From: Naegleria gruberi
Lineage: Eukaryota
Strand: one strand, 5' to 3'
Length of the DNA stretch: 64,000 bases
Assembly: GCA_000004985.1 (NCBI GenBank)
Contig: GG738867.1
Positions 4,621-59,708 of the stretch are shown in pieces. Under the pieces are notes generated by a model. That model was not told the DNA's origin, ran no database searches, and saw nothing but the letters and a program-made list of their open reading frames with translations. Every line of letters starts with the position of its first letter. Within the stretch, counting starts at the first letter, position 1. A program made the translations under genes and the position numbers.

Positions 4621-4904
4621 TTTTTTACTGTGTATGATAGGAAAGATTTTTGTCCATCAAATTCTGATGAATATCAACACGGAAGGCAATGACATTCTTT
4701 AGGTAAACAATTCTATCTTGATATTTATTGTTATCCCTTCGATACTAAATAGCTGATGCTGATGATCCATACGACCTAAAATCAAGCATGCACATTTGGA
4801 TAATACAAAAAAATTGTTTTTTATTTTTTTTTAAATTTTTCAGTCATCAACAGATCATCACCATCAATAAGGAACGGCTACCTTTATTAAATAATATTAA
4901 AAAA
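4621..4904. promoter_or_regulatory. Putative bidirectional promoter region between divergently transcribed VPS51 (minus) and BIG-type ARF-GEF (plus)
   Basis: 284-bp AT-rich interval between the two inferred start codons (4620 minus, 4905 plus). It contains A/T tracts (aaaaaaattgttttttattttttttt). Inference from gene arrangement only. Confidence 0.3.
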
Positions 4905-14596: not shown

Positions 14597-14677
14597 CGCG
14601 GTCTACAGGATTCGAACCTGTGCGGGTCGCCCCAATTGATTTCTAGTCAATCACCTTAACCACTCGGTCAAGACCGC
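14597..14677 (-). tRNA. tRNA-Ser (anticodon AGA)
   Basis: Reverse complement GCGGTCTTGACCGAGTGGTTAAGGTGATTGACTAGAAATCAATTGGGGCGACCCGCACAGGTTCGAATCCTGTAGACCGCG folds as a type-II tRNA. Acceptor GCGGTCT/AGACCGC, D-arm GCCGAGTGGTTAAGGC, anticodon stem ATTGA/TCAAT with loop CTAGAAA (AGA), long variable arm, T-loop GGTTCGAATCC. Near-identical to eukaryotic tRNA-Ser-AGA. Confidence 0.85.
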
Positions 14678-18012: not shown

Positions 18013-18269
18013 TTTTAAAAGGTGGTGTGTGAAATTCATTATTTGGACCATTGAATTATTGAACCAATTTGTAAAGTGGAGAAATAATGGAAAGTCAATT
18101 GCATTTATGTCAGTAAATAGAGGCAATGGTGCAACATTGCAAATCTGACTAATGATCCTTCCGGATGAAAATTTAAAGTATCTTCCAAATAATAATTCAA
18201 CAATTGTAATCAAGTAAAAAACACTGGACGAATTTGTGAATTTATATTAAGCCAATAGATAAAATGAAG

Positions 18270-18340
18270 TGCATTAGCCGGGAGTCGAACCCGGGTCACC
18301 AGCTTGGAAGGCTGGTATGATACCGTTACACTACTAATGC
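18270..18340 (-). tRNA. tRNA-Gly (anticodon TCC)
   Basis: Reverse complement GCATTAGTAGTGTAACGGTATCATACCAGCCTTCCAAGCTGGTGACCCGGGTTCGACTCCCGGCTAATGCA. Acceptor GCATTAG/CTAATGC, anticodon stem CCAGC/GCTGG with loop CTTCCAA (TCC), T-arm CCCGGGTTCGACTCCCGG. Closely matches eukaryotic tRNA-Gly-TCC. Confidence 0.85.
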
Positions 18341-21472: not shown

Positions 21473-21553
21473 CGCAGACTGCAGGATTCGAACCTACGAA
21501 GGTTTCCCCAACAGATTTCAAGTCTGTCGCCTTAACCACTCGGCCAAGAATGA
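21473..21553 (-). tRNA. tRNA-Ser (TGA)-like sequence with defective acceptor stem (possible tRNA pseudogene)
   Basis: Reverse complement ..TCATTCTTGGCCGAGTGGTTAAGGCGACAGACTTGAAATCTGTTGGGGAAACCTTCGTAGGTTCGAATCCTGCAGTCTGCG has intact D-arm, anticodon arm (loop CTTGAAA = TGA), variable hairpin and T-arm typical of tRNA-Ser. The 5' acceptor strand TCATTCT pairs at only 4 of 7 positions with the 3' strand AGTCTGC. Confidence 0.45.
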
Positions 21554-39408: not shown

Positions 39409-42103
39409 ATGAGCAAAAAGATAGTGCCCATTTTGAGTCTGTATGAGCCTACTATATCAGATTCCGATCAGGTGTTAGCTTCAGGTCGATCAGCTCGTTA
39501 CCAAGGAAAACTCCAATTACATTCATCTACTGCATCCATCTACAAAACACCTTCATTAGCTCATATGACAACCACGGCTAGTATTAGATCTTCCGTAACT
39601 GATTTAGTCAAGTTCAATAGGCTCTCTCCTCATTTAAAACCTGAAGAGGAAGGGAAAGAGGAAAGAGTTTCCAAGTTTTTCTTATCAATCAAGTTTTTCC
39701 TGATTTTAATTATTTGTGGAATTGTAATTATGAGCTCTGTAGTTTTATCATCGACATGGATTGGAGCTTTATTGCCCTCAATCTGGGGGTTGAGTAATAG
39801 TGTAAAGGACAAACAAGTATTTGAGATAGTGAATAATATCAAAGAAACCATACAGGAGGTGCTGATCGTTTCTTCAGCAACAAAAAGTCAATTAGTTCAT
39901 TCACTGAATTATACAGACAGAGCTTGGATAGAAAAGCACATGTATACCATCTACAAATCTGAGTTGGATTTTCACAAGGATTTAATGATTACAACATACA
40001 TTGGAGATAATTTGGGAACTTGTTATGGAATAATAACATGGGATTCAAAAGTAGCCTTAGTGCACACCAACCTGAATGATCAGCAGTTATATTTTTGTGA
40101 GGATGTTGTAACATATGATTATTGTAAACGCAATTCAAAACCTGATATTACTTTAGGCAAATTTGAAATGTCAGAAATAGTTGAAACTGCAAACCTTTAT
40201 GCAGGATTTCCAGCATTTACACTGAGCTATGCAGATCGTACAATGCCTCAGTATGTGTTTATTAGTTTGATTAATAGTTGGAAAAGAGCTGCTCCTGTGA
40301 ATGGAACCAATTTTGACTATTATTTTGGATATGATATCAGTGTTGCAACCTTAACAACTCATGTTGAAAAGATTTTGGATCGTTCATATGGGGATAGATT
40401 TGCAATTGTAGAAACTGCTACTAATTACGTTATAGCAATGGATCACACAACACAATTTCTTTCTTGGGATTCGGATCGTTATACTCGAATGAGTATAAAT
40501 TCAGTCCAAGACACACAAATGAAATACATCTTCTCACAGATTAGTGGTGACTACTCATCAATGAAGACTGTCAAATGTAATAATCAAGAGTATCTGTCTA
40601 AGGGTGGATATTTCATAGCTCTTCATCGTTACTGTACTGGAAATAACATTGATTGGATGATTGTCTATACAGGTTTGTTTTAATAGATTGAATTGAAAAT
40701 AACACAAATTCTTCAGTTCCTGAATGGAATTTTACTGGAAGTTTTATTGTTGGCATGTTATCAGCTTTAACTGGAACAGTATTGATAATGATTGTAAGCG
40801 CAATTGTTGGAATTATTGTTTCATATAGAATTGTGAGACCATTCAATAACCTTATTGAACTATTTGAGAGTGTTTCTCATATGGATTTAGACAGATTGAC
40901 CGTTTCGAAAACCTACTTTTCAGAAGTTGTTAAACTCCAGAAAAACTTTTTATTTATGGTGAATAGAATTAGAAGTTACAAAAGCTTCATTCCTCCTCAC
41001 TTGATCAGCCAAATAGAGAATGGAGGAATGGAAATTCCCGAAGTTGAAGATCCAAGCACTTCACGGCAGCAAAGTGAGGGATATAATTCGAACAATTCTC
41101 TATCAAGTACTGGAAGTTTACGGAAAACTACTCTTGCGAAGAGTGGAAAGAAGAAGTATATTGCTTCAAAAACAATGTTCTCTCTACACTTGGAAATAAG
41201 GCAGGTTACAATCGTTACCATATTAATGGAAGGACTCAATGAAATGTTGAATGAAGCAAATGCTAAAGAGGTTGTGAATTTGTTGAGTGATGTATTTCTG
41301 GAGATTAGTACTGCCGTAAAACCAAAAGGAGGTCAACTAATTGGAACTGATAATGACATGTTTACCATTTCATTTAATGCTTCGACTGATCTTTCAAGGC
41401 ATGAAGAAAAAGCTCTTTCAGCATCTCAATTATTGAGAGACAAGTTATCGAAGCTAAAATCAATCAAATGGAAAAATTTGGAATATTGGAAGAAACATAG
41501 TTTCTTTTTGGATAAAGTCGTTTTCAGAACAGCTATCCTTTGCCAACAATCTCAAACTGGAAATATTGGTACCTCTGACTCAAAAACTTTTACAATTATT
41601 GGAAGTTTCAAATATAATGCTGATGCTTTGCTTGAGGTTGCCCAACGTTTAGATTTGGATGTGGTTGTCACTGAAAGATTATACTCTCAATTTTCCCATT
41701 TGTACTATATGAGATTTGTAGACAGTGTCGACTTGGCAAACGACTCCATGTACACCTCACCAAAGTTTAAAGAGGATAATATCTATGTTGGGAATGTGTT
41801 TGAAGTTGGTGACTTGTGTGAAACAAAAGCAGATGGTAAGTTTTCTAATTTCATTTTAATTAATTGTTATTTCTGATTTTAGAATGGATGTACGAATTGG
41901 AGGAACAAGGAAAGAAAGAAAAATGGAAAATCTACAATAAGGCTTGTGATTTATTCTTTGAAATGGTACATACAGAAGCTATAGAGCTATTTGAAGAATT
42001 CCTTCATCAACACAACCAAACAGCTTCTACCATTGATAAACCAGCTCATCATCTTATCAACGTATGTAGATCACAAATGGAAGAAGAAGAAAAAAGAGAG
42101 TAA
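39409..42103 (+). CDS. Receptor-type class III nucleotidyl cyclase-like protein (TM - extracellular sensor region - TM - HAMP-like - cyclase-homology domain); exons 39409..40672, 40717..41835, 41883..42103
   Basis: GTTTGT donor at 40673 with CAG acceptor at 40716, and GTAAGT donor at 41836 with TAG acceptor at 41882; both are phase 1 and restore the frame. TM1 is FFLILIICGIVIMSSVVLSS. About 300 aa lie between the TMs. TM2 is GSFIVGMLSALTGTVLIMIVSAIVGIIV, followed by a HAMP-like VRPFNNLIELFESVSHMDLDRL. The cyclase-homology region is VTIVTILMEGLNEMLNEANAKEVVNLLSDVFLEISTAVKPKGGQLIGTDNDMF..., in which the first metal-binding Asp of the FADIVGFT motif appears to be replaced. Confidence 0.55.
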
Positions 42104-42554
42104 TAGACTGGCTCAATTAATAACCAACACTGCCAATGGCTCGTTAAATTATAAAATACCTTACAGTGTATGTAGAGTTTTGGAAATTTAATAGATTCAA
42201 ATTCAGATATTTGATAAGATGACCCTAAAGATGTCCCACACCACAATTAAAATTTGAAGTTTACTCAAACAATAGAAGAGCGATGGATTCAGTTTGAATC
42301 ATCATACCGATGCCTGTGTGGTTAGTTGGGACTCTCAACTACAGCGCTGTTACGGAGATATCCTTGTTATGTATTTCACCACACACAAGATGAACCTTAT
42401 CAGAGGTACCTTATCGACCCATGTAACACACCCAAAAAACACACTTTCAACTCACGTTCCAAAATGATTGCAATGCAACTTGCCATAGTCACTATTTAAA
42501 TCACCGGAGCAGAGAGCACCATTCTTTCACAACAGCAACAATATCTCTAAAAAA

Positions 42555-44018
42555 ATGTTTCAAGAAGAACACCACCAACACCAGTTCGGTAAATTGCTTA
42601 TTGGTAGCATGCTGCTATTGATGTGTTGCTGCTGTGTGATGATGGGTGAGGTTAGTGCAACACTTGAGGTTACGAGGGCTGAGAAACAAGCAGTTACATC
42701 TAAGGGAATTTTGCAAATTCAAGCAATTTCTAGACACTGTGATAGATTGCCAGTTTCAGAGTTGAATATTCCTAATGATCCGATTGATTTTGAAAAGATT
42801 TCCAAGTTGAAATTGGGTGAGTTAACTGGTTTGGGACAATATCAATGCAATCAAATGGGTAATAACCTGTACAATAGATACATCAGTGAACAATCATTGA
42901 ATAGAGTTAGAGGTATTTCAACACAATATGTATCAAGTGATTATTCATTTAGATCAACAGATTTAGATAGAACATTGATGAGCATGTGGTCTGTTTCAAT
43001 GGGTTTATTCAAGCAAGGAACTGGAAATACACCAATTGTTAATTTTATGAATGTAAATGATTTGGAAGGTAATTCAATGTTTTCACTTCCAAATGGTACT
43101 CAAGCAGTTCCTGTTCACACAGTTCCACAAGAGTCGGATTCAGTCTTGATTGGATATCAATTTTGTAACAGCGTAATGAAAAGAATGCATGCGGTGAATA
43201 CTCAATCAGCTATTGAATATTTCAATAAGAATCGTCAATTAATTAATGAATTGTTCAAGGTTACTGGATGGGATGCCTCTAAGGGTGATTTATCTTTGGC
43301 AACACTTGTTGATGTTTTAACAGTTCAAAAATCTCACAATTTACTTTCTCTCCAATGGGTTCATGAACATTGGGATGAGATTTGTGCATTGAGAGATGGA
43401 TATTTGAAATTAATTTATACCTATCCAGTATTTGGAAGAGAAGGAAGTAGTGATCTTGTTACATTGATGAATTACAATGTTGCTCAGACCAAAGTCAAGT
43501 ATTATCACTACTCGGCTCATGACACTACTCTGCAAGCACTTGCTGCCAGTTTGAAATTAACTGCTGATTATCCTTATTTGGCCAATCAACCAGGTTATGG
43601 ATCATTCATGGTTATGGAATTACATGAAATGAGTGATGGATCTAAGGCTGTCAGATTTGTTCATGCCAAGCAATTTAATGATACTTCATTCACTCCTCTC
43701 ACAATGACCTCATTGGGTTGCAAGAGTGAATATTGTCCATTAGAACAATTTTCTGAGCTAGTTAGTGAATATTCAATGGTCCCTTCTGATTCAACATGGT
43801 GTATGGAATGTAAAAATTCAAATAGAGATTTGTGTGCTAGCGAATTTATTCAAACCTACCAAGAATCCAATAAGGCATTGATGATTACCACTCCAATTCT
43901 TGCCTTTACTAATCTTTGCACCATTTTTATCATGATTGCAGTAATTGCTTGTTGCATTAGAAAGAATAGAAAACTAGCAAACCAACAACAAGATGCCATG
44001 TATCATGGAATGAAATAA
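42555..44018 (+). CDS. Histidine acid phosphatase (branch-2, lysosomal/prostatic acid phosphatase-like) with signal peptide and C-terminal TM anchor
   Basis: N-terminal hydrophobic leader; RHCDRLP (a variant of the RHGxRxP catalytic motif) and a downstream HD motif (YSAHDTTLQAL); C-terminal TM helix ILAFTNLCTIFIMIAVIACCI followed by a basic tail. Confidence 0.7.
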   Translation: MFQEEHHQHQFGKLLIGSMLLLMCCCCVMMGEVSATLEVTRAEKQAVTSKGILQIQAISRHCDRLPVSELNIPNDPIDFEKISKLKLGELTGLGQYQCNQMGNNLYNRYISEQSLNRVRGISTQYVSSDYSFRSTDLDRTLMSMWSVSMGLFKQGTGNTPIVNFMNVNDLEGNSMFSLPNGTQAVPVHTVPQESDSVLIGYQFCNSVMKRMHAVNTQSAIEYFNKNRQLINELFKVTGWDASKGDLSLATLVDVLTVQKSHNLLSLQWVHEHWDEICALRDGYLKLIYTYPVFGREGSSDLVTLMNYNVAQTKVKYYHYSAHDTTLQALAASLKLTADYPYLANQPGYGSFMVMELHEMSDGSKAVRFVHAKQFNDTSFTPLTMTSLGCKSEYCPLEQFSELVSEYSMVPSDSTWCMECKNSNRDLCASEFIQTYQESNKALMITTPILAFTNLCTIFIMIAVIACCIRKNRKLANQQQDAMYHGMK

Positions 44019-44067
44019 ATCAATATTAAAAAACAAGATTGATGTAGATTTATCTATACAAAGAGAT

Positions 44068-46455
44068 TTATTCACAAATCCTTGAGATGAGTCCATAAAA
44101 TTCAACACCTGCAAGGGAAAAATAATTATTGTTCGAAGAATTGTTAGCAGTTTGAGTAATTTTGAAATATTGATAGTATGAGGTACAATTCAAATCCCAG
44201 GAACCGGTAGAGCCTTTGAGATTCAAAGCTTGGTCATTGGTATGTGTGAAAATATCTGAATAATTGATACCGTCTGAACTTCCACTCAAAGTCCAATGAC
44301 GAAGAGCTTCTCCATCTCTAGACATGGTGTGTCTGAGAGAATATTTGGTTGGCATCACTCTAATGGTTTCAAATTTGATAATTATGAAAGCATTGGCCTT
44401 TCCAATAAGATTACATTTAGTTGGTTCATGACTCACCAAGTCCTTTGCTGAGCCAACCTCAAAGTTGGATGAGGCAGTAACAGAAAGGTACGATCTATCC
44501 ATTGGGCTAGTGTATGCTTCTTGACTGTAATTGGTACCCAACCAATACAAGATTCCATTAGTATCAAAGTCCTTTTCATAGATAAAGACACGAATTTTTC
44601 TTGGTCTCGTGCTGTAAACAGATTCATCATTCTTCTTACCTTCCAATCTGCTAACTCTACTCCACAAAGCTTCCAAAATGTCTTCCTTAGATACAAAGAG
44701 TGGATCATTCTTGAGTTTAGTCAAGAGTGGAATGCTCAAGTAGGTATATCTTACACATTTGAATATTTGGACTTTTTGTTCTTGAGTCAACTTGTCCTTA
44801 TTACTTTCAATATAGTTGCAAGCAATTTCATAAACTTGATCCTCATCTTTAGTATAAAGTTCATCACATCTCAATAATTCTACAAATGTATTTGGCAATA
44901 CATCATAAATAATTGTACTTCTACCAGAGTTGAGTAAAGTGTAAAAGTTTGCAGCCAAAATTTGTGAACATTTACCAGATTGCTCTTCCAATTCTGGTAC
45001 ATGAGAATCACAGTATTGTAAATACTTGATAGCAAGTTCTACATCCAATGATCTAGAATCTACAGATGCATTGATAATGTTTTTAAATAATTCAATATTA
45101 TCAAATGCTTTGAACTCGTCAATAAATCTCTGTACAATTTCTGAAACAATTTTAACTCTCTCTTCGGTTGGATTACTCTTCATATTCTTATTTCCAATAA
45201 TGGAGAAGAAAATATCAAGAGGGAATTTACGATCATTATCAAAGACCTTTTCCACCAACTTTTGATTAAGAATATCAAAGTTATAAGCAATAGAATCAAC
45301 ACAAATACTCTTGATAGAATTATCATTTGAAATAATAGCAGAATCCAAAACATCAAACACATTCTCTGCATTGATAAATGAAAGCAAAAAGTTTTCAACT
45401 TCACACTTCAAAGGATCTACATCTAAAAAGTTGGCCAACAACTTCAAAGAAACCACATTGTATCTGTCAATGGTAATCATACCCGAATATAAATATTCTA
45501 TTAAAATTCATATATAATTACAATTATTAATAATTAATAATAATTATTACTATTACATACCAATGACTGTTGGAAAAACTTGATCAACATTACACAATGA
45601 TAAATTAGAACTCTTCTCATCAATAACACAATCCGAAGTAGTTTGGAATATCTCTCTGAAATAGGATGATCTATAACCCAGAACCATCTTGTGTACCTTG
45701 AATTGAACACCACCACATGTAACTGTAGCATCAGTAAACAAACCAGACTTGTAGAATGGTAAAAATCCTTCAATAAACAATCCAGGAATAACTTTAGCTT
45801 GCTCAATCACTTCCAATGGAACAACATCAACTTTTTCTGTTGTTGCTGTGGCTGGTGTTACTGGAGTCGGTACAGCAGTGGTGGTTGTTGTTGGAGTTGG
45901 CAATGTAGTAGTGGCAGCAGCAACAGGTGTTGGAGTTGTTGTTGTTGCAAGAGTCGGATCAACAGGTGGAGGAACACTCTTGTACTTTGTGATGAGACTA
46001 CTCGTTGGATCGACTTGAACCAGTGATTTGTATTCCTTTGTGGCGTTGTTATAGTTTGGAATGACAGCTAGAGTGAAGAGTTTAGAGCCTTCTAAAGGTT
46101 TCTTATTTATCTTTATGCCTTTTGGTGAAGAAGCAATAACATCAGTAGCACTATCTAATGTTGTTGAATCATCTGAAGCACTAGCAGTTGTAGTAGCAAG
46201 AGTTGTTGTTGTATCATCAGCAGCTGTTGTAAATAAACTACTTGTTGTTTGAGTATCAGCGGATGAAGCTTCTTGTCCTTGATCTGTTATTGTTGTTGTT
46301 GTTACTGTTGTACCTTGAATATCTCCTCCCTCTCCATTATTTGCTATCGATGAAGATGTTGCTCCCAATGTTGCAGGCGTGGTGGTTATTGTTGTTGTTG
46401 AATCCTCACTAGTGTTTGATCCAATTTCCATTTTTTTGCTTGTTGTAAAAATCAT
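44068..46455 (-). CDS. BTB/POZ-domain protein with Thr-rich mucin-like N-terminal extension and BACK-like plus beta-rich C-terminal region; exons 46455..45561 and 45497..44068
   Basis: The BTB core spans the intron (DATVTCGGVQFKVHKMVLGYRSSYFREIF...VFPTVIG | EYLYSGMITIDRYNVVSLKLLANFLDV). GTATGT donor at 45560 and TAG acceptor at 45498 (63-nt intron, phase 1). About 200 aa of T/A/P-rich sequence lie upstream of the BTB. The C-terminal approx 150 aa (HWTLSGSSDGINY...YFSLAGVEFYG) resembles a galactose-binding-like/discoidin-like module. Confidence 0.65.
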
Positions 46456-46601
46456 GAGTTCATCAACTTGCTTGTCTTTTCAAAGTTGAACTCAAAACCA
46501 CTTGAAAATAACAAATTATAAACTTGGAATTATTGAGAATGATAATTGAGAAAGGAATGTGAGTTTTTAATAGAGAAATAATGATTGGAAGAAGTGTGAA
46601 A

Positions 46602-49600
46602 TTATAAAATTTCCTTTCTTTGAGCATTGGGTGGTTCTCTAATTCTGGCAATTTTGATGAATTGCTCGACAGTCATGGTGCTTCCATAGAGTGCAGAGGC
46701 TTCTCGTTGTTGCTTTTGGATCATCATTTGGATTTGGAAAACTGGTTGGATGGCAAAGTCAACTCGACACTTTTCCAATCTGTTCATGGCTGTGGCAAGT
46801 TCTTCAAATTTGGCCCATCGAATCATGTTATTGTGATGTTTCACATAGGTTTCAGTTGAGTAAAAGTAGCTCAATTCTTCCTGTTGTAAAAAATCCATAA
46901 AATGATTCTGAATATACATGAGCTCTCTCAAGTGAGCTTCAACAATTGGAAGACAAGGAGTTCTGCATCCATCAAATAGGTCATTATAATTCTGATATCG
47001 AGAATCTTCAACAACTACTACATCGATATGATAATTGGATGGATCAAATCCGAAAAAGATGTCATATTTGGATTTGAAATGAATGAGGGATGGAGTTGGC
47101 ATGTGAGAGAAGGAAGAATCTTTTGATTTGGCAGTATGGTGATCCTCATAAAAGACTACGAGTGGATTAGTTTCCACTTCTTCAGCTTCATTGTCATCCT
47201 CTGAGGCAATTTGTTGCTGTTTGATTGAGTTGTTGACACTTGTTGGAATTACTCTGACAGTGCTTATTGATTCCTTTCTTCTGACAATATTTGGAGATGG
47301 AAGGGAACTTTCTACATTGACAGAAGTGGAACTATTGATAGAGAATGAGTCGAATGAGCCTGATTTTCTCATTTCTTGAACAATGGTATGGCTGTGTTTT
47401 GGGTGACCGAGATTTCTCACAATACTCTTGAAACTAAAGTTGGCATTTCCTTTGAATTTCTTTTTGGATTCATCGACAGTATGGTAGAGATTTTCCTTAA
47501 TGGCTGGATGTGAAAAGATGGTAGCAAGTGCATGGGCAGCACCATAGTTTTGCATATTGTACAATTCAATAATGATTTGCTTAATCTTGATGATCAATTC
47601 AACACGATCCTTGATGTGTGGTTTATCCAAGACATCACACATAAGCCAATTAGCTCTATCGTGGATCAACTCGAGATATTGACACAATTTAGGACAATTC
47701 ATCTTGAAATATTGAGATCTAAAATTGGAAATGGCCATATTGAAATCCAAGTAGCCATACGTCTTTTTACAATTCTTTACAGAGAGAATGGAATAATTCA
47801 AAAATTCAACACTCGAAATTTCACTATAAAAGTAATAATCCATAATAGTGAATTGTCTAGATAATTCTACAGGTGACACATCTGACCATTTGAGAGAGGA
47901 TGAAAAGACATTTGGAGGAATGTTTGGTCTTGGACATTTTGACGAGTCCATGTAAATGGTTTTGTAAAAGTGATAATATTCGTCAGTGTTGGTATTATCA
48001 TCATCAAGATTTTCATCGGTATCAATTGAAGTTTCCAAGGCATTCCTCTTTCCTCTTCTATTGTTGCCATTAGTGAAGATTACATCAGAATCTGATTCAG
48101 ATAAATGGGACGAGAAGAAATTAGACAACTTATCAGAGAATGACTCTGTGTCGGTCTTTTCAATTTCCAGCGAAGTGAATTGGGTATATTCCTTAATGCT
48201 GACCTTCTTTCTCAGATTCTTCTTACCTAAAATTGTTGCCATTTTCTTTTTCAATGTTGTATTGATAGTTTCACATAATTCGAGTGCATTTCCAACTTTT
48301 GATAGAGTCACAACCGAGTCTGGAATCTTGCTTGACTCAACCTTTTTCAATAAGTGTAGGGATTTTATCTGTTCGATAATCTTTGAGAGAAATTCGAACA
48401 TGTTTTGATTCCATTGATAGTAATATTCCGATAGCCAATAGCTCAACACATCGAGACAACAAATAATAATTTCAATACACTCTACAGTTTCCAAAAGTTT
48501 TGACATTGTGTTGGTAATTCTATCAACGTGTTCACCGACTGATTCTTCAAGAATATTATCATTAGTGACATCAGTAGAGGAAAAGACTCCCTTACTATCT
48601 AATCCGAAATTTTTCATGATCAAGATGAGTGGAAGACTCAACCTTTCGAATATTTTCAATAGGAGACCATCTGGAGACAGAATGTGAACATATCCCCTGA
48701 AGAATGCCTTTCTAAAAGTGTCCTTTGTTTCGATTCTTGTCTCAGGACGTACACAATTCTCTCCAAATACTTCGAAATAATCATTAGCAACAGTATCGTA
48801 TTCTCTGAAACGAATCTTACTCATAGTATCGAATAGTCTGTGCTCAGTGACTGTAACCATTTCAATGAGTTTGTTCAAAGTCAATCCAAATAAGACGTTG
48901 TGATTCTTATCGTCGTCTTTGAATGTATAAAAATTGGAGAATGAGTCAAATAATTCATGATGTTCTCCAGTGCTTTGATTCTTCCTCTCTATGAATAGTT
49001 TTCGTTGTTTGATATCATTTGAGGTCAGAGTTTCGAATGCAATCTTGGGAATGTTTGAGAACTCCTCCCAATAGGAAGGTTTCAGAGAGAGCTTGTTAGA
49101 TTGAGAACGAAGGAGGAATTTTTGGAAGAAATTTTGAGTTACTGTTTTCGAAGGAATGAAAGTGTTTCTTCTGATGGTACTTTCTCTCACTCTCGATTTG
49201 GCAGGCGAGAGAGGAGAATTTTTGCTCGATAAAGTGCTAGCTCTTCCATGAATGGAACGAAGCTTTTCCAATGTTTCGGCAGCTGTTGGTCTTCCAATAG
49301 GATTAGGATCCAATAATTTACAAATCAATTCGGCCAATTCAGTTCCATTAGTTACACATTCCATAACTTGTTGTCTGAGTTGGGCATGGAAATTCACATT
49401 CTGATACACCTCAATGTAAAATTGTCTATTCAAGACTTGGAACAAGAGTTCATAAAATACACAACCAAGAGACCACATATCTGTCGAATATCCATATGGT
49501 TCCTGGGACATCATTTCTGGTGAGCAATATTTAACAGTACCCAGAAGAGTTTGTTCAGAGCTAAAGCTTTGTGGAACAAGAAGCTGGTCAGTGTGAATAC

Positions 49601-50426
49601 TGCCATTATTCCTATTGAAAAAATTACCTCTTTCCTTTTCCAATTCTACTGCTTCTTCACTGGTGGAGAATTTCATCTTTTTCATAGTTTCAAAATCTCC
49701 AATCTTGATCGACTTTTCATCATTGGTAACAAAAATGTTACTCGGCTTTAAATCCAAATGTACAAATCCCTCGGAATGCAAATACTTGACACCCTCTGCA
49801 ATTTGAATCATGTAACTCAATAATTGATCTCTCGAAATGACTTCAAATATTGAATTGACATGACAATTATTCGTACTTTCGTATTGTTTAGTTTTCTTCT
49901 TCAAATAGGTATCCAAATCACCATGTTTAAAGTATTCCATTTGAAAGCAAATCCAATAACTTTGTTTCTTATCAACAAGCTGACTCAAATTCTCAACTTG
50001 CATCTTGATAGATGATGATGAATCGGAAGAAATTGAACCTGCTTCAGCAATTTCATTCTCATCCTCATCGTCATCTTCACTTCCAACAAGTAATTTGGAT
50101 TTTTCACTAGCTTCATTCTTTGTATTGGCAACAAACTGATTACCATTCACATTCCCAGTACCAGTACCAACACTATTTCCTCCTCCACCTCCTCCCAAAT
50201 TAGAATTACTATTCGAATTATTTGTATTCATAATATTTGCAAACTTTTCAAAAAAGATATCTTCAATTTCTACAAGATTTGGCGACTTTAAATGTCTCAA
50301 TTTCCATCCCTCAGATATAAATCTGTTCAACTCATCCTCCGAGTAGCATTGTGTCTTTTTGAGAACTTTTGTAATGTGCTCTCGGGTGACAATGACGAGA
50401 ACCATTTGTTGATTATTCTTCATCAT
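46602..50426 (-). CDS. Protein kinase - RasGEF (CDC25-homology) fusion protein; the 5' end possibly extends upstream
   Basis: 1274-aa ORF. Kinase C-lobe motifs YLHSEGFVHLDLKPSNIF, IGDFETMK, GTVKYCSPE and DMWSLGCVFYELL. Gly/Asn-rich insert. RasGEF N-terminal-like region and a CDC25 catalytic domain (..NMQNYGAAHALATIFSHPAIKENLYHTVDE.. / ..PCLPIVEAHLRELMYIQNHFMDF). The reading frame stays open for about 70 codons upstream of the first Met without another ATG. Confidence 0.65.
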   Translation of the reverse strand: MMKNNQQMVLVIVTREHITKVLKKTQCYSEDELNRFISEGWKLRHLKSPNLVEIEDIFFEKFANIMNTNNSNSNSNLGGGGGGNSVGTGTGNVNGNQFVANTKNEASEKSKLLVGSEDDDEDENEIAEAGSISSDSSSSIKMQVENLSQLVDKKQSYWICFQMEYFKHGDLDTYLKKKTKQYESTNNCHVNSIFEVISRDQLLSYMIQIAEGVKYLHSEGFVHLDLKPSNIFVTNDEKSIKIGDFETMKKMKFSTSEEAVELEKERGNFFNRNNGSIHTDQLLVPQSFSSEQTLLGTVKYCSPEMMSQEPYGYSTDMWSLGCVFYELLFQVLNRQFYIEVYQNVNFHAQLRQQVMECVTNGTELAELICKLLDPNPIGRPTAAETLEKLRSIHGRASTLSSKNSPLSPAKSRVRESTIRRNTFIPSKTVTQNFFQKFLLRSQSNKLSLKPSYWEEFSNIPKIAFETLTSNDIKQRKLFIERKNQSTGEHHELFDSFSNFYTFKDDDKNHNVLFGLTLNKLIEMVTVTEHRLFDTMSKIRFREYDTVANDYFEVFGENCVRPETRIETKDTFRKAFFRGYVHILSPDGLLLKIFERLSLPLILIMKNFGLDSKGVFSSTDVTNDNILEESVGEHVDRITNTMSKLLETVECIEIIICCLDVLSYWLSEYYYQWNQNMFEFLSKIIEQIKSLHLLKKVESSKIPDSVVTLSKVGNALELCETINTTLKKKMATILGKKNLRKKVSIKEYTQFTSLEIEKTDTESFSDKLSNFFSSHLSESDSDVIFTNGNNRRGKRNALETSIDTDENLDDDNTNTDEYYHFYKTIYMDSSKCPRPNIPPNVFSSSLKWSDVSPVELSRQFTIMDYYFYSEISSVEFLNYSILSVKNCKKTYGYLDFNMAISNFRSQYFKMNCPKLCQYLELIHDRANWLMCDVLDKPHIKDRVELIIKIKQIIIELYNMQNYGAAHALATIFSHPAIKENLYHTVDESKKKFKGNANFSFKSIVRNLGHPKHSHTIVQEMRKSGSFDSFSINSSTSVNVESSLPSPNIVRRKESISTVRVIPTSVNNSIKQQQIASEDDNEAEEVETNPLVVFYEDHHTAKSKDSSFSHMPTPSLIHFKSKYDIFFGFDPSNYHIDVVVVEDSRYQNYNDLFDGCRTPCLPIVEAHLRELMYIQNHFMDFLQQEELSYFYSTETYVKHHNNMIRWAKFEELATAMNRLEKCRVDFAIQPVFQIQMMIQKQQREASALYGSTMTVEQFIKIARIREPPNAQRKEIL

Positions 50427-50922
50427 GGATGAATCTGCTATGGAGAGTAAATCAGCAGCAGGAATGTTATTTGTGGAGGCATCAGAAAGAGCGAGAGAAT
50501 TATGTGGTGAAGATGATGAGATGATGATTATTGATGGGATTCGAATATTGATGACTTCCGAAACTAGAGGAAGAAATTCGTTGTGAATTGGAAACGGATA
50601 GACATTTAACCACTTGATATTGTTGTTGCGAAGATGATGACTTCATCCTCGATGCTCTGGTGAACTAGTTTAAAATGTGTTGAGATGAAGAGGCTAAATA
50701 TTATTCGAAACGAAGCAGATTTTTTTGGACTGTAATATGACAAGTTAATGAGGTGTCAGATAGGTGCATCCAATTTTGCCTTTTACAATTTCTTCCTGTA
50801 CTGTAATCAAACTCCTATTCAAAGGTTACACAATCAAATTGGCGCCATTTTAAAATCTTTTTGAAAAATAAGAAAAATAGAAAAAAGGCACAAAACTTTG
50901 GAAAAACAAATTACAAAAAAAA

Positions 50923-52216
50923 ATGTCCTTATTTTCCAACTCATTATTCACGCCTCCTACAGTTGCTAATAGTGATGATTGTAAAGATTGCACAGAGGAG
51001 GGATTTACCAGTCCTATGAGTTATGTGTGTTCCGATTGTTCCTCCAATTTGTGTTGTTATCACGGACAAAAACATATGAAGGAAAATTCTGATCATTCTG
51101 TTGTAGCTAAATCAGCTTACAGTAGTAATAGTAGTAGTAATAGTGGAAATGTAACAACAAGTGGTAGCAATTTGTTTGGATTTATGAGTTCTTCTTCTTC
51201 TTCTGGTATTTTCGGATCAACAAGTAATAGTGCTAATAGTATTTTCGGATCAACAAGTGGAACAACAAGTGGTGGTGGTTTGTTTGGTAATAGTAGCAGT
51301 ACTAATAATTCTGGATCGATATTTAGTGGTGCTTTTTCAACTTCATCCCCGATTGTTGAGCTTACTCCAGAGGAAATTATGAAGAAAAATCTTGAAGCTG
51401 TTGAAATGTTTGAGAATAGTAGGGATTCTGCATTATCACTCTTTATTGCAATGCATAACCATGTTCCTGTTAACAATAGTTGTAAATTGATTTTGGTTGT
51501 AAGTGAAATATTTTCTAATTTTTTCATCTATTTGAAATATTGTTAGGGAGATAGCTGTGGAAAATCATCCTTTGTTAAAAGATTAATCTCAAATGAATTC
51601 CATGGGCCATACATTCCAACCCTTGGTGTCTCTGTTCATGCAAAGGTAAGCTCTCTTGATTAATATTAATTCAAATTGACTTTATTGAAGAAATTTGAAA
51701 CAACCCATGGTGATATCACTTTCAACATTTGGGATTGTGCAGGTCAAGAAAAGTTTGGAGGCAAGTTGACTTTATTAAGCAATTCTAATATTATTTTATA
51801 ACATTTTAGGATTGAGAGAAGGTTATTATATCAATGGTAATTGTGCCATCATTATGTTTGATTGTGTAAATTCTTTGAAAAGTGTTAATAATTGGCTTAG
51901 AGATGTTGTAAGAATTTGTGAAGGCATTCCAATTGTATTGTGTCTCAATAAGGCTGATCTCTTATCAGAGGAAGCAAGACAAAGACTCAAATTTGAAATA
52001 GCAGGTTTTCGTGGTCGTATTCTCAACTATTTCGAGTTGTCAAATAAGGATTCATTGAATTTGGAAGATCCACTCGAATATTTGGCCAAAGCACTGCTCA
52101 AAAACAAACATGTTTCATTCTTTTCCAAGGTAAGAAAGCAACAAGAAAATGTATTCCATCAAAAGCTTCAAAACACTTCCATGACAGCAGATGCCAACAT
52201 CAAGACAATTGAGTAA
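50923..52216 (+). CDS. Divergent Ran-like small GTPase with N-terminal Cys-rich zinc-ribbon-like motif and FG repeats; exons 50923..51498, 51547..51645, 51691..51760, 51810..52216
   Basis: Ran homology runs across 3 introns: KLILVGDSCGKSSFVKRLISNEF (Ran [24 protein letters not shown]), [31 protein letters not shown] (Ran [31 protein letters not shown]), and VLCLNKADL (NKxD). Intron 1 is GTAAGT...TAG and intron 2 is GTAAGC...AAG. Intron 3 can only be drawn as GCAAGT...TAG (51761..51809), which exactly restores GG-L-REGYYI. The N-terminal 190 aa have CKDC...CSDC...CCYHGQKH followed by GIFGSTSN / SIFGSTSG / GLFGNSS / LFGFMSS FG-type repeats. Confidence 0.7.
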
Positions 52217-52394
52217 ATTAATCTACAGAATTGTTGTAAAATGAATATTGCGGTTTACTCCAACTCTTGATGAACAGTTCTGTTGATCCATGATGGGGTA
52301 ATAGACAACGATCCGTGTCCAGTACAGAAAAGACTGTTGATGAACGATACATTCCATTACATTCCACCATTACCAAATTTTCCACAAAAACGAA

Positions 52395-55300
52395 ATGTCA
52401 TCATCACACTCATTCACTCTAATCTTTCTAACTATTGCTGTTATATTGCTAACTTTAAATGGGCACTATTCGATATTTGCCTTTGATCTTACTTTTCCAA
52501 CATTTCCTGATGCCAAGTTTCGATCGGATACTTCCAATGCCACTGAAGTGTTTATTAAAGACTCAATTGACCAAATTGCTAAACAACTCGAGCCACCATC
52601 TTTAGCTCTTCCATATTATATTGATGGACCAATAGCACTATTCGCAGAAGTGGTTGGAGTTCTCTCAAATAGTGACACGTACAGTAAACCTTACGTAAAA
52701 CCACCAGATGTTATTTCGAATAGTACACACGAAATGTTGAACATAATGATGACCAAAGTATTGAACCGAGTAGAAACTGCCCTGTTAGAAACCAAATATG
52801 ATAAGCTTGTTATTGCTCTCGTTATTGAACTCGATAAGGATCTTGAAGTTGCTGATTGTAACATTTCGCCAATCATTCCAATAGAAATATCAAAAAAACT
52901 TGCTGACATTACTGTCTATTTGACAATTAATGGTCATTCCTTGAATATGAAATGTGGTGGAGATTATTTATTCTCTAGTGGTCCAGATTCCAATTGGAAC
53001 ATTGTTATTAACAGAGCAGTACTTTCGAATATATATTTTACTGGAAATTATGTTTTCAAAAAGGTTGAATTTTTGGCTCAATGTGAAATATCAGCTTCTA
53101 GTTTTTTAGTATTCATCAAATCCAAGACTCTTCACACACTATATATTCCCTACATTAGTGCTATTAAGGAATTGATATTTATTGATAGTGTTATGGATAA
53201 ATTAAGAGTGGATTTCATTCAAGAGTTTCATCTATTTTTGGCAAGTAATAGTTTGATTGGTTTAGGAATGTTCGATTGTGAAATTAAGAATGTTTGGCTG
53301 TATAATTCAAAGGTTTATCTAGAAGACAGGTTTATTATTGAAAGTTCTGATCAATTCATATTATTTAACTCAACTATTCAATCAAAGAACTCTCCAATAC
53401 AGATGAGAATAGAATATTCGAAACTTATTTTCATAGATGGCTTTAAAAATTCTCATACTCCAATCATGCTCTCACTTTCACATTCCATTTCTGTTGTAAT
53501 GAAAAACATATTACTCAATTCTGCCACTTTACAACAAGAATCACTTCTTAATTTTCGAGGAATCAAATCATTATCCATCTATTCCTCCATATTTAAAGAA
53601 AACAATGCAAATAGAATTATAGACATTAGTGATTCAAGTGAGGTTGACATTAAAGAGATTTTATTTGAGGAGAATTCTGCTACTGATAGTCCAATTTGCA
53701 TTTCTCCTGGTGGAGCTAAGAGCTCACATACCCGTATTGTGGACAGTGTTTTTAATAGGAATAAGGCGGGAAATAAGGCAGTGATTGCATTGTCTCATCC
53801 AATTATATTGGCCCGATCTGTTTTTAATGAAAATGAGGGAGTTAGTGGAGGTTTGTATATTTTGATTTAAATTGGTGGTTGACCATGTTTAGGAGCTATT
53901 TATGTTGAAGCTGGATTTACTATTTCTGGGTCCACTTTCAAGAAGAACAAGGCCAAGAATGGAGGAGCTCTGTATATTCACTCAGAAATTGGTGCTTCAG
54001 GTACCATGCAAAATGTTGATTTTGTGGAAAATCAAGTAACAGATCTAGATGATGTTAAAGTGTGTGGTCAAGATAGTTGTGATGGAAGTGGAGGTGCTAT
54101 TTATTATAACCAAAACGACCTTTTCTCAATAATGTCATGCAATTTTGTCAAGAATTTGGCTGTCAGAGGAGGTGCCATCTTTGCAAATTTTGAAAATGAT
54201 ACCATTTTTATTACTTATTCGAAATTCAAAGAAAATTATGCAAGTTATGGAGGAGGTGCAATCTATTCTAATTCTGCCTCATATCTTCCATTAATTTATG
54301 AAGAATTGGGAAGTGGAAATAAGGCTAAAGTATTTGGAGATTATGTTGCTTCTTCCATTGCTAGTGTGAATTGGAGAGTTCAAATTGAGGATCAAAAAGA
54401 TAGATTATATGAAGGAAATCAAACTATTTCAGTATATCCAGGTCAATTATTTACCATTATTCCCTATTTTACTGACCTTTACAATAATTCTTTTGTAATG
54501 AATAAGGAAGTTTCAAAAATCAAAGTTTCAGGATCAAATTTCACAATTAGTCAATCATCAGAAAAGGAATTTACTAATCTATTCATTGCATCAACCGGTC
54601 CACTTCCAAATTCTGAACATTTACACATGACAACACTTACCATTTCATTTTACAAAACCGAAACCAATCTAAAAGTCCAACTTCTCCCCTGTCCAAAGAA
54701 TTTCTATTTGAAAGATAATCAATTTAGTAAGAATCTTGTCTGTGTCTATGAAGAATCCAGAGAATATCTGATTGCTGTAGCTGTTTCAGTAACCATTGTG
54801 GTCATTACCCTTCTCCTATGCTCAATAGGTGTCATTTCCATGCTCTGCTACAAGATATCCCACAAGGTAAAGTATTGGATGCGTAGAGATAAGGCAGAAA
54901 AGGAAATTGAAAAGCGATTACTCGAATCTGATCTATGTCCAGAAGAGGAATTGCTCAGTGTTCGAAATTTGAATTTTGTGATTAGTATTGATCAGATTAC
55001 ATTGGAAAGAAAGATTGGAGAAGGTGGTTCTGGAATTGTTTATTTGGGAAAATGGCATCACCATCCAGTTGCTGTCAAATGTCTTAAACTTCAAGATGCT
55101 TATCAAAATTCAGATGAAATTGAAAAGGAAGCAGCTCTATTATGCAAACTTAGACATCCCAATATTGTATTATTCTTTGGTGTTTCATTAACTCCACAGA
55201 AACAATATCTCATTGTGGAATATTTGGAGAAGGGAAGTTTGGAGAAACATATTTCATTAATGAAACGAAACCATCAATTCGAATTTGTTGACAAGTTGAA

Positions 55301-56086
55301 GCTTTTGATTGATATCACATGTGGAATGGCATATCTTCATTCCCTTAAAGTTATTCATAGGTATGTGAAATATTTAAACTATTTATTCCTAATATTCGAA
55401 ACAGAGATTTGAAACCTGGAAATATTCTATTAGATTCTGTTGGAGTAGCCAAAGTTTGTGATTTTGGCATTTCTAGAATTGCTGGAAACACTGCAGCAAA
55501 CTCCACAACCATCTGTGCTGGAACTTTAACCTACATGGCTCCTGAACTATTGCAATCAGATGCCGAAAAGAATCGAATTACAACCTCAGTCGATGTTTAC
55601 AGTTTCTCAATTATCATGTATGAAATATTCTTTGAGGAAGCTCCCTATGCAAAATCTTTGAAAATCAAACAATTTAAACAGGAAAGAAATGGAAAAATTC
55701 ATAATTCTCATTCAGAAGATGGTTTTTATAATAATCATCATCTTGTAACTCCATTTTCAGTTATTTCCAAAGTGATTAAGGGAGTGAGACCTGAAATTCC
55801 ATTCGAAAATCCACAAGATATTGCTGAATGGCTTCAATTATACATGTTTGAATATGGATTACTTTCCGATATTTGTAAATCAAAGGCAATTTCTATTGTA
55901 AATGATTATGTGGAATTGATGAAAGCTTGTTGGAGTGCAGAGCCAGATCAGAGACCAAACTTTGAAACTGTTCTCAATTGTCTTTCATTGTTGAGACAGC
56001 AATTTATGGACTTGACAGATTATCATAAACAGATATCTGGTTCTCTATCCTCTACATCAACAACTACTACAACTGCCTATGACTAA
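52395..56086 (+). CDS. Receptor-like TKL-family protein kinase with large GGAIY-repeat (Pmp-like / parallel beta-helix) ectodomain; exons 52395..53850, 53893..55360, 55405..56086
   Basis: Signal peptide (LIFLTIAVILLTLNG). Approx 800-aa ectodomain containing recurrent GGA[IL]Y/GGGAIY units (GGAIYYNQND, GGAIFANFEN, GGGAIYSNSA, GGALYIHSE). Single TM (LIAVAVSVTIVVITLLLCSIGVISMLCY). The cytoplasmic kinase has IGEGGSGIVYLG, AVK, HRDLKPGNILL and DFG. GTTTGT donor at 53851 with TAG acceptor at 53892, and GTATGT donor at 55361 with CAG acceptor at 55404. Confidence 0.7.
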
Positions 56087-56186: not shown

Positions 56187-57520
56187 TTATATTGAATTAC
56201 CGTGTAGAGATTCTTCTGCCATTGCATTAAAATTAGAAACAGTTTCGTCCTGTGAAACTGAAATACTACTACAAGGTGTACCATTAATATCATGTGGTGG
56301 AGTTGCAACTGGAGTGCCTGAATCAGAAGGCGACAAGATCAACTCTGAAATCTTTGCCTTCTCTCCAATTGGCACAAATACAGAGCTACGATTTCTTGGA
56401 CTTGTTGGAATTGTTTTCGTTTCGGAACAATTAGATTTCGTATCATCCATATGCAACTCTTTGAAAACTGTCTCAGTCTGAATGAATAACGGATAGAATA
56501 GAGCAAGAGTCAAGCTGGCAAAAAATAAAATTCCAGCACAGTTTACAAAATGCCAAATAAACTTGAATTCGTCCTTGTCAGCAACGAGTGCAGCTCCAAT
56601 GATTACTGCTAAAAGTTGAAGCAAGATACAGGCAATTAAGCCAATCAGGAGAGAGAATGTCACAATAAATGGGTTTTCCATCTTTTTTTGATGACTAGTG
56701 ACGTTCTTAATCTTTTGGATGGACTTTCGAATAGTTTTAATCACTAATATTCCAGAAGTTAAAATAGCAATGGTATCTTTTGCATATAAAACTAGAATAA
56801 TTCCAAATAGTACAAAGTTAAGGGTGGTAGTTTCTGTTTTGTTAAAGATATTAAACTTGGTCAGAGGAACAAATAAACTTGCCAAGGTTAATACAATGAA
56901 AGTGGCAATTACGAAAAGAACTATTGTGATCTGAGTAAAGATTCTAACTCTCTTGAATGCCTTCTTTGAAATGGCTCTCATGGTTACAGCAGTTCTCCAA
57001 CTATTTTTTCTATTAGAATCAAAACTAAATTATTCGAAACTTACAAAACCATCTGAACGAAAAACAAAATCACAAACAACATGATAAAGTTCAGAAACAT
57101 GAAGAATGATGAAAATCCAGCAGTTACCCAAATAGCCATATAGTGTGAGTAAGAAACCCTTTCACCTCTCTCAACAATTATTCTAGCTCTAATGAATAGG
57201 ATATCATTTACTATACGAATCAGTAAATTGATACATTGGATAGCTACCATGGACCCTGCCAATAAGAACATGATGATATGATTCCTTTTCATGATTCCTT
57301 CACCAACTTTCTTCTCAGACGAAACGTGTTGATGTTTAATTCTATTTCGAATAAGACTCAATAACAATCCAAAGCAAATAAAGTAAATAATAAACAAGCA
57401 CAAATAGAAACCAGAATTAGCCATCGAAGCAGCTGGACCCCATATTGGTGGAAAGGCATTCACAGACGAAACATTGACGAAACCATCACCAGGGAACGAA
57501 ACAGTAACATTTGAAGACAT
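56187..57520 (-). CDS. 7-transmembrane receptor-like protein (GPCR-like), tandem paralogue 1; exons 57520..57045 and 57000..56187
   Basis: Exon 1 has about 3-4 hydrophobic helices and ends FFVQMV with a GTAAGT donor (phase 2). A 44-nt intron with TAG acceptor. Exon 2 begins ..WRTAVTMRAISKKAFKRVRIF, has 4 more helices and then a Ser/Thr-rich cytoplasmic tail. Seven to eight TM segments in total. A VERGERVSY motif sits at the end of a helix. Start taken as the ATG at 57520 (MSSNVTV...); an alternative ATG is at 57559. Confidence 0.6.
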
Positions 57521-57975
57521 TTTTTTATAGTAGAAGCTCGTTATTCTCTCACTCAACACCTGTATTAACGTTTGATGGAATGGTTATCATATAGTACAGA
57601 GATAAAACATGTCAAATTGACAGTTGGCTCTTTCCAAATATGGAATAATCTCACTTTTCATGTTGGTATGATATTTAGTAATAGACACCAAAGAAATACA
57701 ACTACTATATAGGAATGATGGAAGTGAGATATTGAAAAAAGCAAAGAACCACTTGTACTGTAAAATACTGAATTGTAAACTTGGTGAGACTTGATGTCAT
57801 CAAATGCGTACTACACAAGATTAATGCTTACAGTAAGTTTCTAGTTCATGAAAAGATTCTGATGAAATTGTTGGTCCACAGTGATGGAAGGTTTCTTCAA
57901 AGTTTAGAATAGTTTGGTTTCTGACCACAAAATATTCGAAATTCTCGAAAGTTTCAACTTGATTGCAATAGTTTC

Positions 57976-59296
57976 TCATTCAATCATTGCAATGACAGAT
58001 TCACTACTTGGTAAGGGCATGAAATTCGAAAGTGTTTCACCAGGAGTTTCATTCGAAAGTGCACTACTGCTCGATGTTCCAGAATTTCCCTGCAATATTT
58101 GCAATGTTGCATCACCAGGTGATAAAACCATTGCACTCTTCTTATTATCAATTGAAAGAAGCATTGAATTTCTATTATTCGATTCGTTTCTTCTACTTTC
58201 AGATAGATTAGAAATGTTTGACTTTGTATCATCAATATGCAATTCCTTAATCACCGTCTCTGTCTGAATAAACAATGGATAGAATAATCCAAGTGTCAAA
58301 ATGGCAAACATTAAAATTCCAGCACAATTAATGAAATGCCAAACAAATTTCAATTCTTCCCTATCAGAAACCAAAACTGCTCCGACAATTACTGCAAGGA
58401 ATTGAAGTAAAATGCAAGAAATTAAAGCTATCAGTAAGGAAAATGTGACAAGGAATGGATTTTCCATTTTCTTGTGTTGAGTGGAAATGTTCTTAATTTT
58501 CAGAATGGACTTTCGAATGGTTTTAATGACCAGTATTCCAGAAATGAGAATGGCAATGGTATCTTTGGAGTATAATAGAACGATTAATCCTAGTAAAATA
58601 AAGTTGACTGTGTTGCTTGTTGATTTTGAAAGGTAATCGAATTTCAATAGGGGAACTGAGATACTAATGAGGATTAGTAAGACGAAAGCAGCAAATACAA
58701 AGAGAGAAATGGTGATTTGAGTAAAGATTCTAACTCTCTTGAATGTCTTCTTTGAAATGGCTCTCATTGTTGCGGCAGTTCTCCAACTAGTTTTTCTGTT
58801 AGAAACAAAATATTAAATTATTCGAAACTTACAAAACCATCTGAACGAAAAATAGAATCACAAACAACATGATATAGTTAAGAAACATGAAGAATGATGA
58901 AATACTAGTCAATGACCACATGGCTGCATAGTGAGCGAAGGTTATCCTTTCACCTCTCTCAACAATTAATCTTGCCTCCATGAATAGGATATCAGAAACT
59001 AATCTGATCAGTAAATTAATACATTGAACGGCAACCATGGACCCTGCCAATATGAACATGATCACATGATTACGTTTCATCACTTGTTTAGTTCTGTTTT
59101 GATCCACTCTCTTTCGAATAGTTCTAAACAACAAGCCGAAACATATGAAATAAATGGCAAAGAGAACCAGATAGAAACCAGAATTAGCCATCGAAGCAGC
59201 AGTTCCCCACACAGGAGGAAATACATTCACAGACGAAACATTGACGAAACCATCCTCTGAAAATTTAATGGTTTCATTGCAACAACCTTTTGACAT
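57976..59296 (-). CDS. 7-transmembrane receptor-like protein (GPCR-like), tandem paralogue 2; exons 59296..58833 and 58786..57976
   Basis: Same two-exon structure as the neighbouring gene, with the same phase-2 GTAAGT donor after FFVQMV and a 46-nt intron. High similarity along the whole length (e.g. MRAISKKTFKRVRIFTQITISLFVF... vs MRAISKKAFKRVRIFTQITIVLFVI...). The C-terminal tails have diverged. Confidence 0.6.
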
Positions 59297-59708
59297 TTTT
59301 TCCACTTATCCTAAAACCATTCGCTTAAATTGCTACCATTCAAAGTTCTGAAAATTTCACTTTTCACATGCCAATTAGGATTGTCATCTTCGTTAATAGA
59401 AACTCCACAATGGCGTTTGAAAAGAATGAAGTTTAGGTGGAACAATGAATTATGTCTCAAAAATGCAATCCAGCCAATTTTTAATACCATATCTTTTTTC
59501 CAACTGTTTCTTCTCAACAATTTCAATGAGAAAGAATGAGAACAAATCATGAGAATAGCTTCTCTATACTCTTATCTTCCATTTAATATCTTCAATTTTC
59601 CAATATTTGACCTCAATCTCCAACCATATGGCAAATAATCATTCCATAATCAAAATTCTCAGAAAATCATCTTTTGGCTGATTTTTGGTAATTTTTTATT
59701 AAAAAAAA

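Follow-up and report, generated by a model that had tools for sequence, protein, structure and literature searches.

A probable U2-type GC-AG intron in a Naegleria gruberi gene for a divergent Ran-like GTPase

A known hallmark of GC-AG introns, reportedly described by Burset et al. 2000 and Thanaraj & Clark 2001, is a donor that is near-perfect apart from its C. GC donors tend toward less efficient use and are often linked to alternative splicing. As the main non-canonical class, GC-AG introns account for about 1% of animal, fungal and plant introns, and the U2 spliceosome processes them (PMC7072748, PMC6310983); lower usage of GC donors has also been reported (PMC6310983). The literature on GC-AG introns yielded no published frequency for Naegleria. 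The third intron (intron 3) of a Ran-like gene of Naegleria gruberi, located in the analysed 64,000-nucleotide stretch of contig GG738867.1 (hereafter the window), is like U2-type GC-AG introns in its GC at positions +1/+2, its 3' AG and the near-perfect remainder of its donor (AG/GCAAGT, with the slash marking the splice junction). In size, composition and acceptor it is typical of the host genome, and no structural difference from the class was found. The stretch 51761–51809 is read as very probably an ordinary U2-type spliceosomal GC-AG intron in a divergent Ran-like GTPase gene. Sequence, reading frame, best homology score and splice-signal scores underlie this reading and suggest that the intron is removed in vivo.

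The window has a G+C content of 31–37% and is densely packed with genes, the introns of which are few and very short. In the product of the Ran-like gene, a Cys/His-rich N-terminus is followed by FG repeats and then by a GTPase domain that is Ran-like but divergent. The gene, as modelled from its open reading frames (ORFs) and splice sites, is organized as follows:

50923–52216, plus strand: Ran-like gene, four exons, 383 aa
50923–51498, plus strand: exon 1, 576 nt, coding from the ATG for the Cys/His-rich N-terminus, the FG repeats, a linker and the first GTPase beta-strand (KLILV)
51499–51546, plus strand: intron 1, 48 nt, phase 0, GTAAGT...TGTTAG, 81% A+T
51547–51645, plus strand: exon 2, 99 nt, coding for GDSCGKSSFVKRLISNEFHGPYIPTLGVSVHAK
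51646–51690, plus strand: intron 2, 45 nt, phase 0, GTAAGC...TTGACTTTATTGAAG
51691–51760, plus strand: exon 3, 70 nt, its last base being the first of the next Gly codon
51761–51809, plus strand: predicted intron 3, 49 nt, phase 1, GC-AG, 80% A+T
51810–52216, plus strand: exon 4, 407 nt including the TAA stop, containing NKAD...SNK and ending with a tail that lacks the acidic DEDDDL

Intron 1, if left unspliced, introduces an in-frame stop, and the junction of intron 2 gives a spacing identical to that of Ran in the alignment to the human protein (1BYU). The sequence AAG/GTAAGA at 52127–52135, within exon 4, resembles a donor; the frame remains open to the TAA at 52216. Joining this site to the AG at 52228 would swap the C-terminal tail only, and it was taken as a chance match.

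The homolog search with the 383-aa product retrieved only Ran proteins, with 48–54% identity, and the closest solved structures are all Ran/Gsp1 (E about 1e-48). The alignment of the spliced product to human Ran (1BYU; E 1e-48) is ungapped at the intron 3 junction. The Pfam Ras domain is found at residues 188–345, covering profile positions 1–161 of 162 and spanning all three junctions (E 9e-32). Like human Ran/Gsp1 (1BYU), the product carries a Ran-type switch II (D/E)GYYI, an NKxD motif and CAIIMFD at the same spacing; switch II and NKxD (here NKAD), two of the features taken to mark a canonical Ran, are both present. The P-loop differs: GDGGTGKT of Ran (GxxxxGK[ST]) is replaced by GDS-CGKS, which is one residue short and leaves a gap against 1BYU, and none of the other intron 1 boundaries restores the missing residue. 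In addition, DTAGQE of Ran is changed to DCAGQE, and the C-terminus ends with ...QNTSMTADANIKTIE in place of the acidic tail DEDDDL present in the Ran proteins retrieved.

Unlike Ran, the product is extended at its N-terminus by 187 residues, which hold a Cys/His cluster and FG repeats. The cluster, CKDC...CSDC...CCYHGQKH, appears B-box-like by eye and has no Pfam match; it is followed by five FG-type repeats. Pfam Nucleoporin_FG was detected in the N-terminal half with 27 bits, under the cut-off of 32.2 bits. The homolog search of the protein collection revealed no protein with the combined Cys/His, FG and Ran-like architecture. The sequence features are consistent with a protein that might be a nucleotide-binding-impaired, pore-associated Ran paralog.

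Exon 3 ends with ...CAA GAA AAG TTT GGA G, the last base being at 51760. GCAAGT occupies 51761–51766 (GC at 51761–62), TTTTAG closes the intron at 51809 (AG at 51808–09), and exon 4 opens with GA TTG AGA GAA GGT TAT TAT ATC at 51810. These coordinates, read from the sequence, are those of the initial annotation, which proposed a 49-nt phase 1 intron at 51761–51809 bounded by G/GCAAGT...TTTTAG/GA. Reading through the intron yields GGKLTLLSNSNIIL and then a stop, after 13 codons; its removal reopens the frame and gives the expected switch II protein sequence. The A+T content of the intron is 80% vs. 61–66% in the flanking exons, and its length lies inside the 35–100 nt range of the 17 probable introns of the window.

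The possible junctions were enumerated by combining donors at 51720–51799 with all intron ends up to 51869, and the in-frame, stop-free junctions (n = 2142) were kept and their products scored against a Ran profile derived from 104 sequences. The top score among them, 209.1 bits, is attained only by the 49-nt deletion. Because G and A residues flank this deletion, it has five equivalent placements (AG-TT, GG-TA, GC-AG, CA-GG and AA-GA), among which only GC-AG is a recognised splice-site pair. A parallel is known from rice, where introns annotated as CA-GG are really GC-AG introns with a G after the 3' AG (PMC6310983). Intron 3 likewise has a G after its AG (TTTTAG/GA) and can be aligned as CA-GG (51762–51810). 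As in rice, the CA-GG label would reflect an alignment ambiguity and not a biological class; it matters as a warning for read mapping, in which aligners may label the junction CA-GG.

According to the initial annotation, no GT donor keeps the frame, and the GC-AG junction is the only solution. The first statement is wrong: GT at 51765 and GT at 51753, joined to the AG at 51815–16, both give in-frame, stop-free junctions. The second is correct in that the 49-nt deletion alone reaches the top Ran-profile score, and too strict in that weak in-frame GT-AG alternatives exist. With the intron running from GT 51765 to AG 51816, the product reads QEKFGGKEGYY and scores 197.8 bits with the Ran profile; with GT 51753 as the donor and the same acceptor, it reads QEKEGYY and scores 182.7 bits.

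The splice signals were compared with those of a local intron set. ORF bridging, together with inspection, yielded 17 probable introns of 35–100 nt in the window. Their donors are GTAAGT (eight introns), GTATGT (four), GTAGGT (two), GTAAGC (one), GTGAGT (one) and, in intron 3, GCAAGT. Since the GC-AG class comprises about 1% of introns (PMC7072748, PMC6310983), one such intron among about 17 in the window is unremarkable. A donor/acceptor weight matrix was trained on the 16 GT introns of the window, with donors scored without positions +1/+2. The splice sites of intron 3 and the scores of the three junctions are as follows:

51758–51768, plus strand: 5' splice site gag/GCAAGTTG, which agrees with the local GTAAGT consensus except at +2
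51796–51811, plus strand: 3' splice site TTATAACATTTTAG/ga, acceptor 8.4 bits, in the local range
51761–51809, GC junction: donor 8.9 bits (without +1/+2), acceptor 8.4 bits
51765–51816, GT junction: donor -10.5 bits, acceptor -2.7 bits
51753–51816, GT junction: donor -6.9 bits, acceptor -2.7 bits
Range of the 16 training GT introns: donor 3.5 to 9.4 bits, acceptor 5.0 to 12.1 bits

Scored without +1/+2, the context of the GC donor exceeds that of 14 of the 16 local GT donors and belongs to the top 0.09% among the 9197 G[TC] sites of the window. GCAAGT occurs 32 times on both strands of the 64-kb window, or about 2.5e-4 per position, and despite that rarity it falls precisely where the frame and homology require a donor. 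The description of GCAAGT as a typical GC-AG donor context is borne out, the remaining positions fitting the local U2-type consensus (8.9 bits). The signals of U12-type introns, a /RTATCCTT donor and a TCCTTRAY branch box, are both absent from the 49-nt intron. The intron was initially considered to be supported by homology only; the homology optimum stands, and the donor and acceptor scores, the length and the A+T content now also point to a GC-AG intron.

Two further lines of comparison were rejected. ORF bridging with NNAAGT control dinucleotides was dropped as evidence, being too permissive to discriminate. A second GC-AG candidate, at 4686–4752, was discarded; its plus-strand reading resembles the antisense of a minus-strand coding sequence upstream of a VPS51-like gene.

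An element shared by introns 2 and 3 was initially regarded as branch-point-like. The 11-mer TTGACTTTATT has exact copies in the window only at 51676 (intron 2) and 51766 (intron 3), and the repeat extends to 14/15 identities over 15 nt, with the copies 90 nt apart. The repeat copies and the candidate branch sites of intron 3 are located as follows:

51672–51686, plus strand: repeat copy 1, CAAATTGACTTTATT, in the 3' part of intron 2
51762–51776, plus strand: repeat copy 2, CAAGTTGACTTTATT, at the 5' end of intron 3, overlapping donor positions +2 to +6
51784–51802, plus strand: candidate branch sites of intron 3, CTAAT with its A at 51788 (21 nt from the 3' end) and TATAAC with its A at 51801 (8 nt from the 3' end)

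Shuffled introns have a common 11-mer in 0.55% of trials. The repeat is nevertheless not treated as significant, because unrelated A+T-rich intron pairs of the window share 10–13-mers several times. As a general motif, TTGACTTTATT was rejected: only its two exact copies occur in the window, and matches with one mismatch are at chance level. Introns contain TTGAC somewhat more often than expected (5 times vs. 1.5 in 958 nt), and its A sits 7–29 nt from the 3' end in four of them. In intron 2, where this A lies 11 nt from the 3' end, TTGAC is a plausible candidate branch site. In intron 3, TTGACTTTATT lies 6–16 nt from the donor and only 9 nt separate the A of TTGAC from the 5' splice site; the element cannot be the branch site here, since it is too near the 5' splice site. 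The initial observation of a copy in both introns therefore holds, while the branch role is retained for intron 2 and abandoned for intron 3. To judge by their placement, CTAAT or TATAAC are better candidates for the branch site of intron 3. The motifs ATAAC, CTAAC and CTAAT recur at a matching relative position in four other introns (60533, 28527, 58796 and 57010), and TTTTAG is the first AG downstream of the candidate branch sites in intron 3.

Under the GC-AG reading, GAG/GCAAGU would pair with the 5' end of U1 snRNA over positions -2 to +6, C-A at +2 being the only mismatch, and the near-perfect match at the remaining positions would make up for the missing U at +2. The branch adenosine in CTAAT or TATAAC would then attack the donor, and the first AG downstream, that of TTTTAG at 51808–09, would serve as the acceptor. 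The resulting mRNA would read GGA G/GA TTG AGA, coding for the switch II sequence.

Exact look-up of the 383-aa product and eight alternative products in the protein collection gave no match, and no protein near-identical to the 383-aa product was retrieved in the homolog search. Orthologs of the neighbouring kinase-RasGEF gene exist in N. fowleri and N. lovaniensis; their flanks contain no Ran-like ortholog, only Ras-like genes with 27% identity. A scan of JGI metagenomes with exon 4 returned 77 loci, all of which are generic Ran genes with no more than 66% identity over short segments. A 5.6-kb contig (L003) from an ENA metagenome (ERZ929261 / ERR1078381) is 97% identical to positions 45594–51192 of the window and holds the kinase-RasGEF gene together with the start of the Ran-like gene, up to codon 90. 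These 90 codons are 97.8% identical, with three substitutions, two of which are non-synonymous. The contig indicates that the sample contained an organism closely related to N. gruberi NEG-M.

The position of intron 3, Gly70 phase 1 in Ran numbering, is not common to the sampled Ran genes, which carry an intron either in Gly74 (phase 1) or in Tyr76 (phase 2), 4–6 codons downstream, or none in the motif. Two recurrent intron positions just downstream are seen in metagenomic Ran genes of unrelated eukaryotes (L025, L042, L051, L057 and L071), namely phase 1 in the Gly of RDG/GYY and phase 2 in the second Tyr (TA/C). Across lineages, introns in the switch II coding region thus fall at several close yet separate positions.

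Among the other genes of the window, two at 1.9–14.5 kb are exact matches to N. gruberi XP_002677441 and XP_002677440, which identifies the DNA as that of N. gruberi. The long ORFs in the region 42000–56000 have no exact counterpart in the protein collection, and no exact encoding match was found for the downstream neighbour of the Ran-like gene. The sole near-identical match of the kinase gene is metagenomic. The missing counterparts of the region 42000–56000 imply either that the annotated models differ in introns or starts or that the entries are absent from the collection; it also seems to lack the annotated N. gruberi products of neighbouring genes. A BTB ORF (45553–46455) and a BACK ORF (44068–45480), in the minus-strand region 44068–46479, probably form one gene via a 63-nt, 90% A+T intron at 45498–45560 (GTATGT...TTTTAATAG). 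The tandem paralogs at 56187–57583 and 57976–59305, both on the minus strand, contain introns of 35 and 37 nt at the same position; these have the form GTAAGTTTCGAATAATTTA...CTAAT/CTAAC-AG, and a 13-mer is common to both. Rfam and tRNA scans of the window returned nothing bearing on intron 3. The tRNA features are the following:

14597–14677: tRNA-Ser(AGA)
18269–18340: tRNA-Gly(UCC)
21473–21553, minus strand: Rfam tRNA match of 44 bits and 81 nt, not called by ARAGORN, which may be an intron-containing or long-variable-arm tRNA

The alternative that survives best, although it is unlikely, is that the gene is a decaying or non-functional Ran paralog, in which intron 3 lost its GT and is spliced poorly or not at all, leaving a truncated protein of 261 aa ending in ...QEKFGGKLTLLSNSNIIL. 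A P-loop (GDSCGKS) one residue under GxxxxGK[ST] and the missing acidic C-terminal tail of Ran would fit such decay, as would the generally less efficient use of GC donors (lower usage, PMC6310983) and the finding of neither an ortholog nor an identical annotated protein. A dead copy, however, should show frameshifts or stops, whereas the four exons are open throughout 383 codons. The motifs G3 (DCAGQE), switch II and G4 (NKAD) are intact in a protein that retains about 50% identity to Ran with three small indels only. The signals of introns 1 and 2 are good, and the context of the GC donor is strong, which would compensate for the GC.

It is extremely unlikely that the intron is a canonical GT-AG intron in which the C at 51762 arose through faulty sequencing or assembly, or is a polymorphism confined to the sequenced clone. 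A single T-to-C change does separate GCAAGT from GTAAGT, the donor of 8 of the 17 window introns; the related-strain contig ends at codon 90, in exon 1, before position 51762, and exact look-ups of the flanking exon 1 and exon 4 ORFs gave no match. The base-call error of a finished Sanger assembly is, however, far below the prior of about 1% for a GC-AG intron. The strong remaining donor context is what true GC donors typically show, and no homopolymer or repeat in the local sequence hints at an error-prone site. In short, the frequency of the class, about 1% (PMC7072748, PMC6310983), far exceeds the finished-assembly error rate and argues against an error.

Scarcely credible is the use of a GT-AG intron, either 51765–51816 (52 nt, product QEKFGGKEGYYI) or 51753–51816 (64 nt, product QEKEGYYI): both junctions are in frame and stop-free with canonical dinucleotides, but their donors GTTGAC (-10.5 bits) and GTTTGG (-6.9 bits) compare with 3.5–9.4 bits for local donors, their acceptor ATTGAG (-2.7 bits) is located 7 nt past the strong TTTTAG, and their products, in which conserved GGLR(D/E)GYY switch II residues are deleted, score 11 and 26 bits lower with the Ran profile.

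For an ordinary GC-AG intron, the preferred reading, the consequence for annotation is that gene predictors limited to GT-AG introns would truncate or split the gene, or pick an in-frame GT-AG intron that deletes switch II residues. A regulated switch, in which the GC donor, weak by design, would act together with a near-copy of the branch-site/acceptor region of intron 2 located just inside intron 3, CAAGTTGACTTTATTAAG, as a potential decoy 3' splice site ending at 51779, is very unlikely. If true, transcripts that retain intron 3, or in which exon 3 is skipped in favour of the decoy, would encode truncated proteins with an incomplete GTPase domain. Such forms would keep the zinc-finger-like and FG-repeat parts, and the output of the FG-repeat Ran-like protein would thereby be tuned.

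Overall, the finding indicates that a heterolobosean (Discoba) genome probably contains GC-AG introns. This is to be expected if such introns date back as far as the U2 spliceosome, and it opens no new question.
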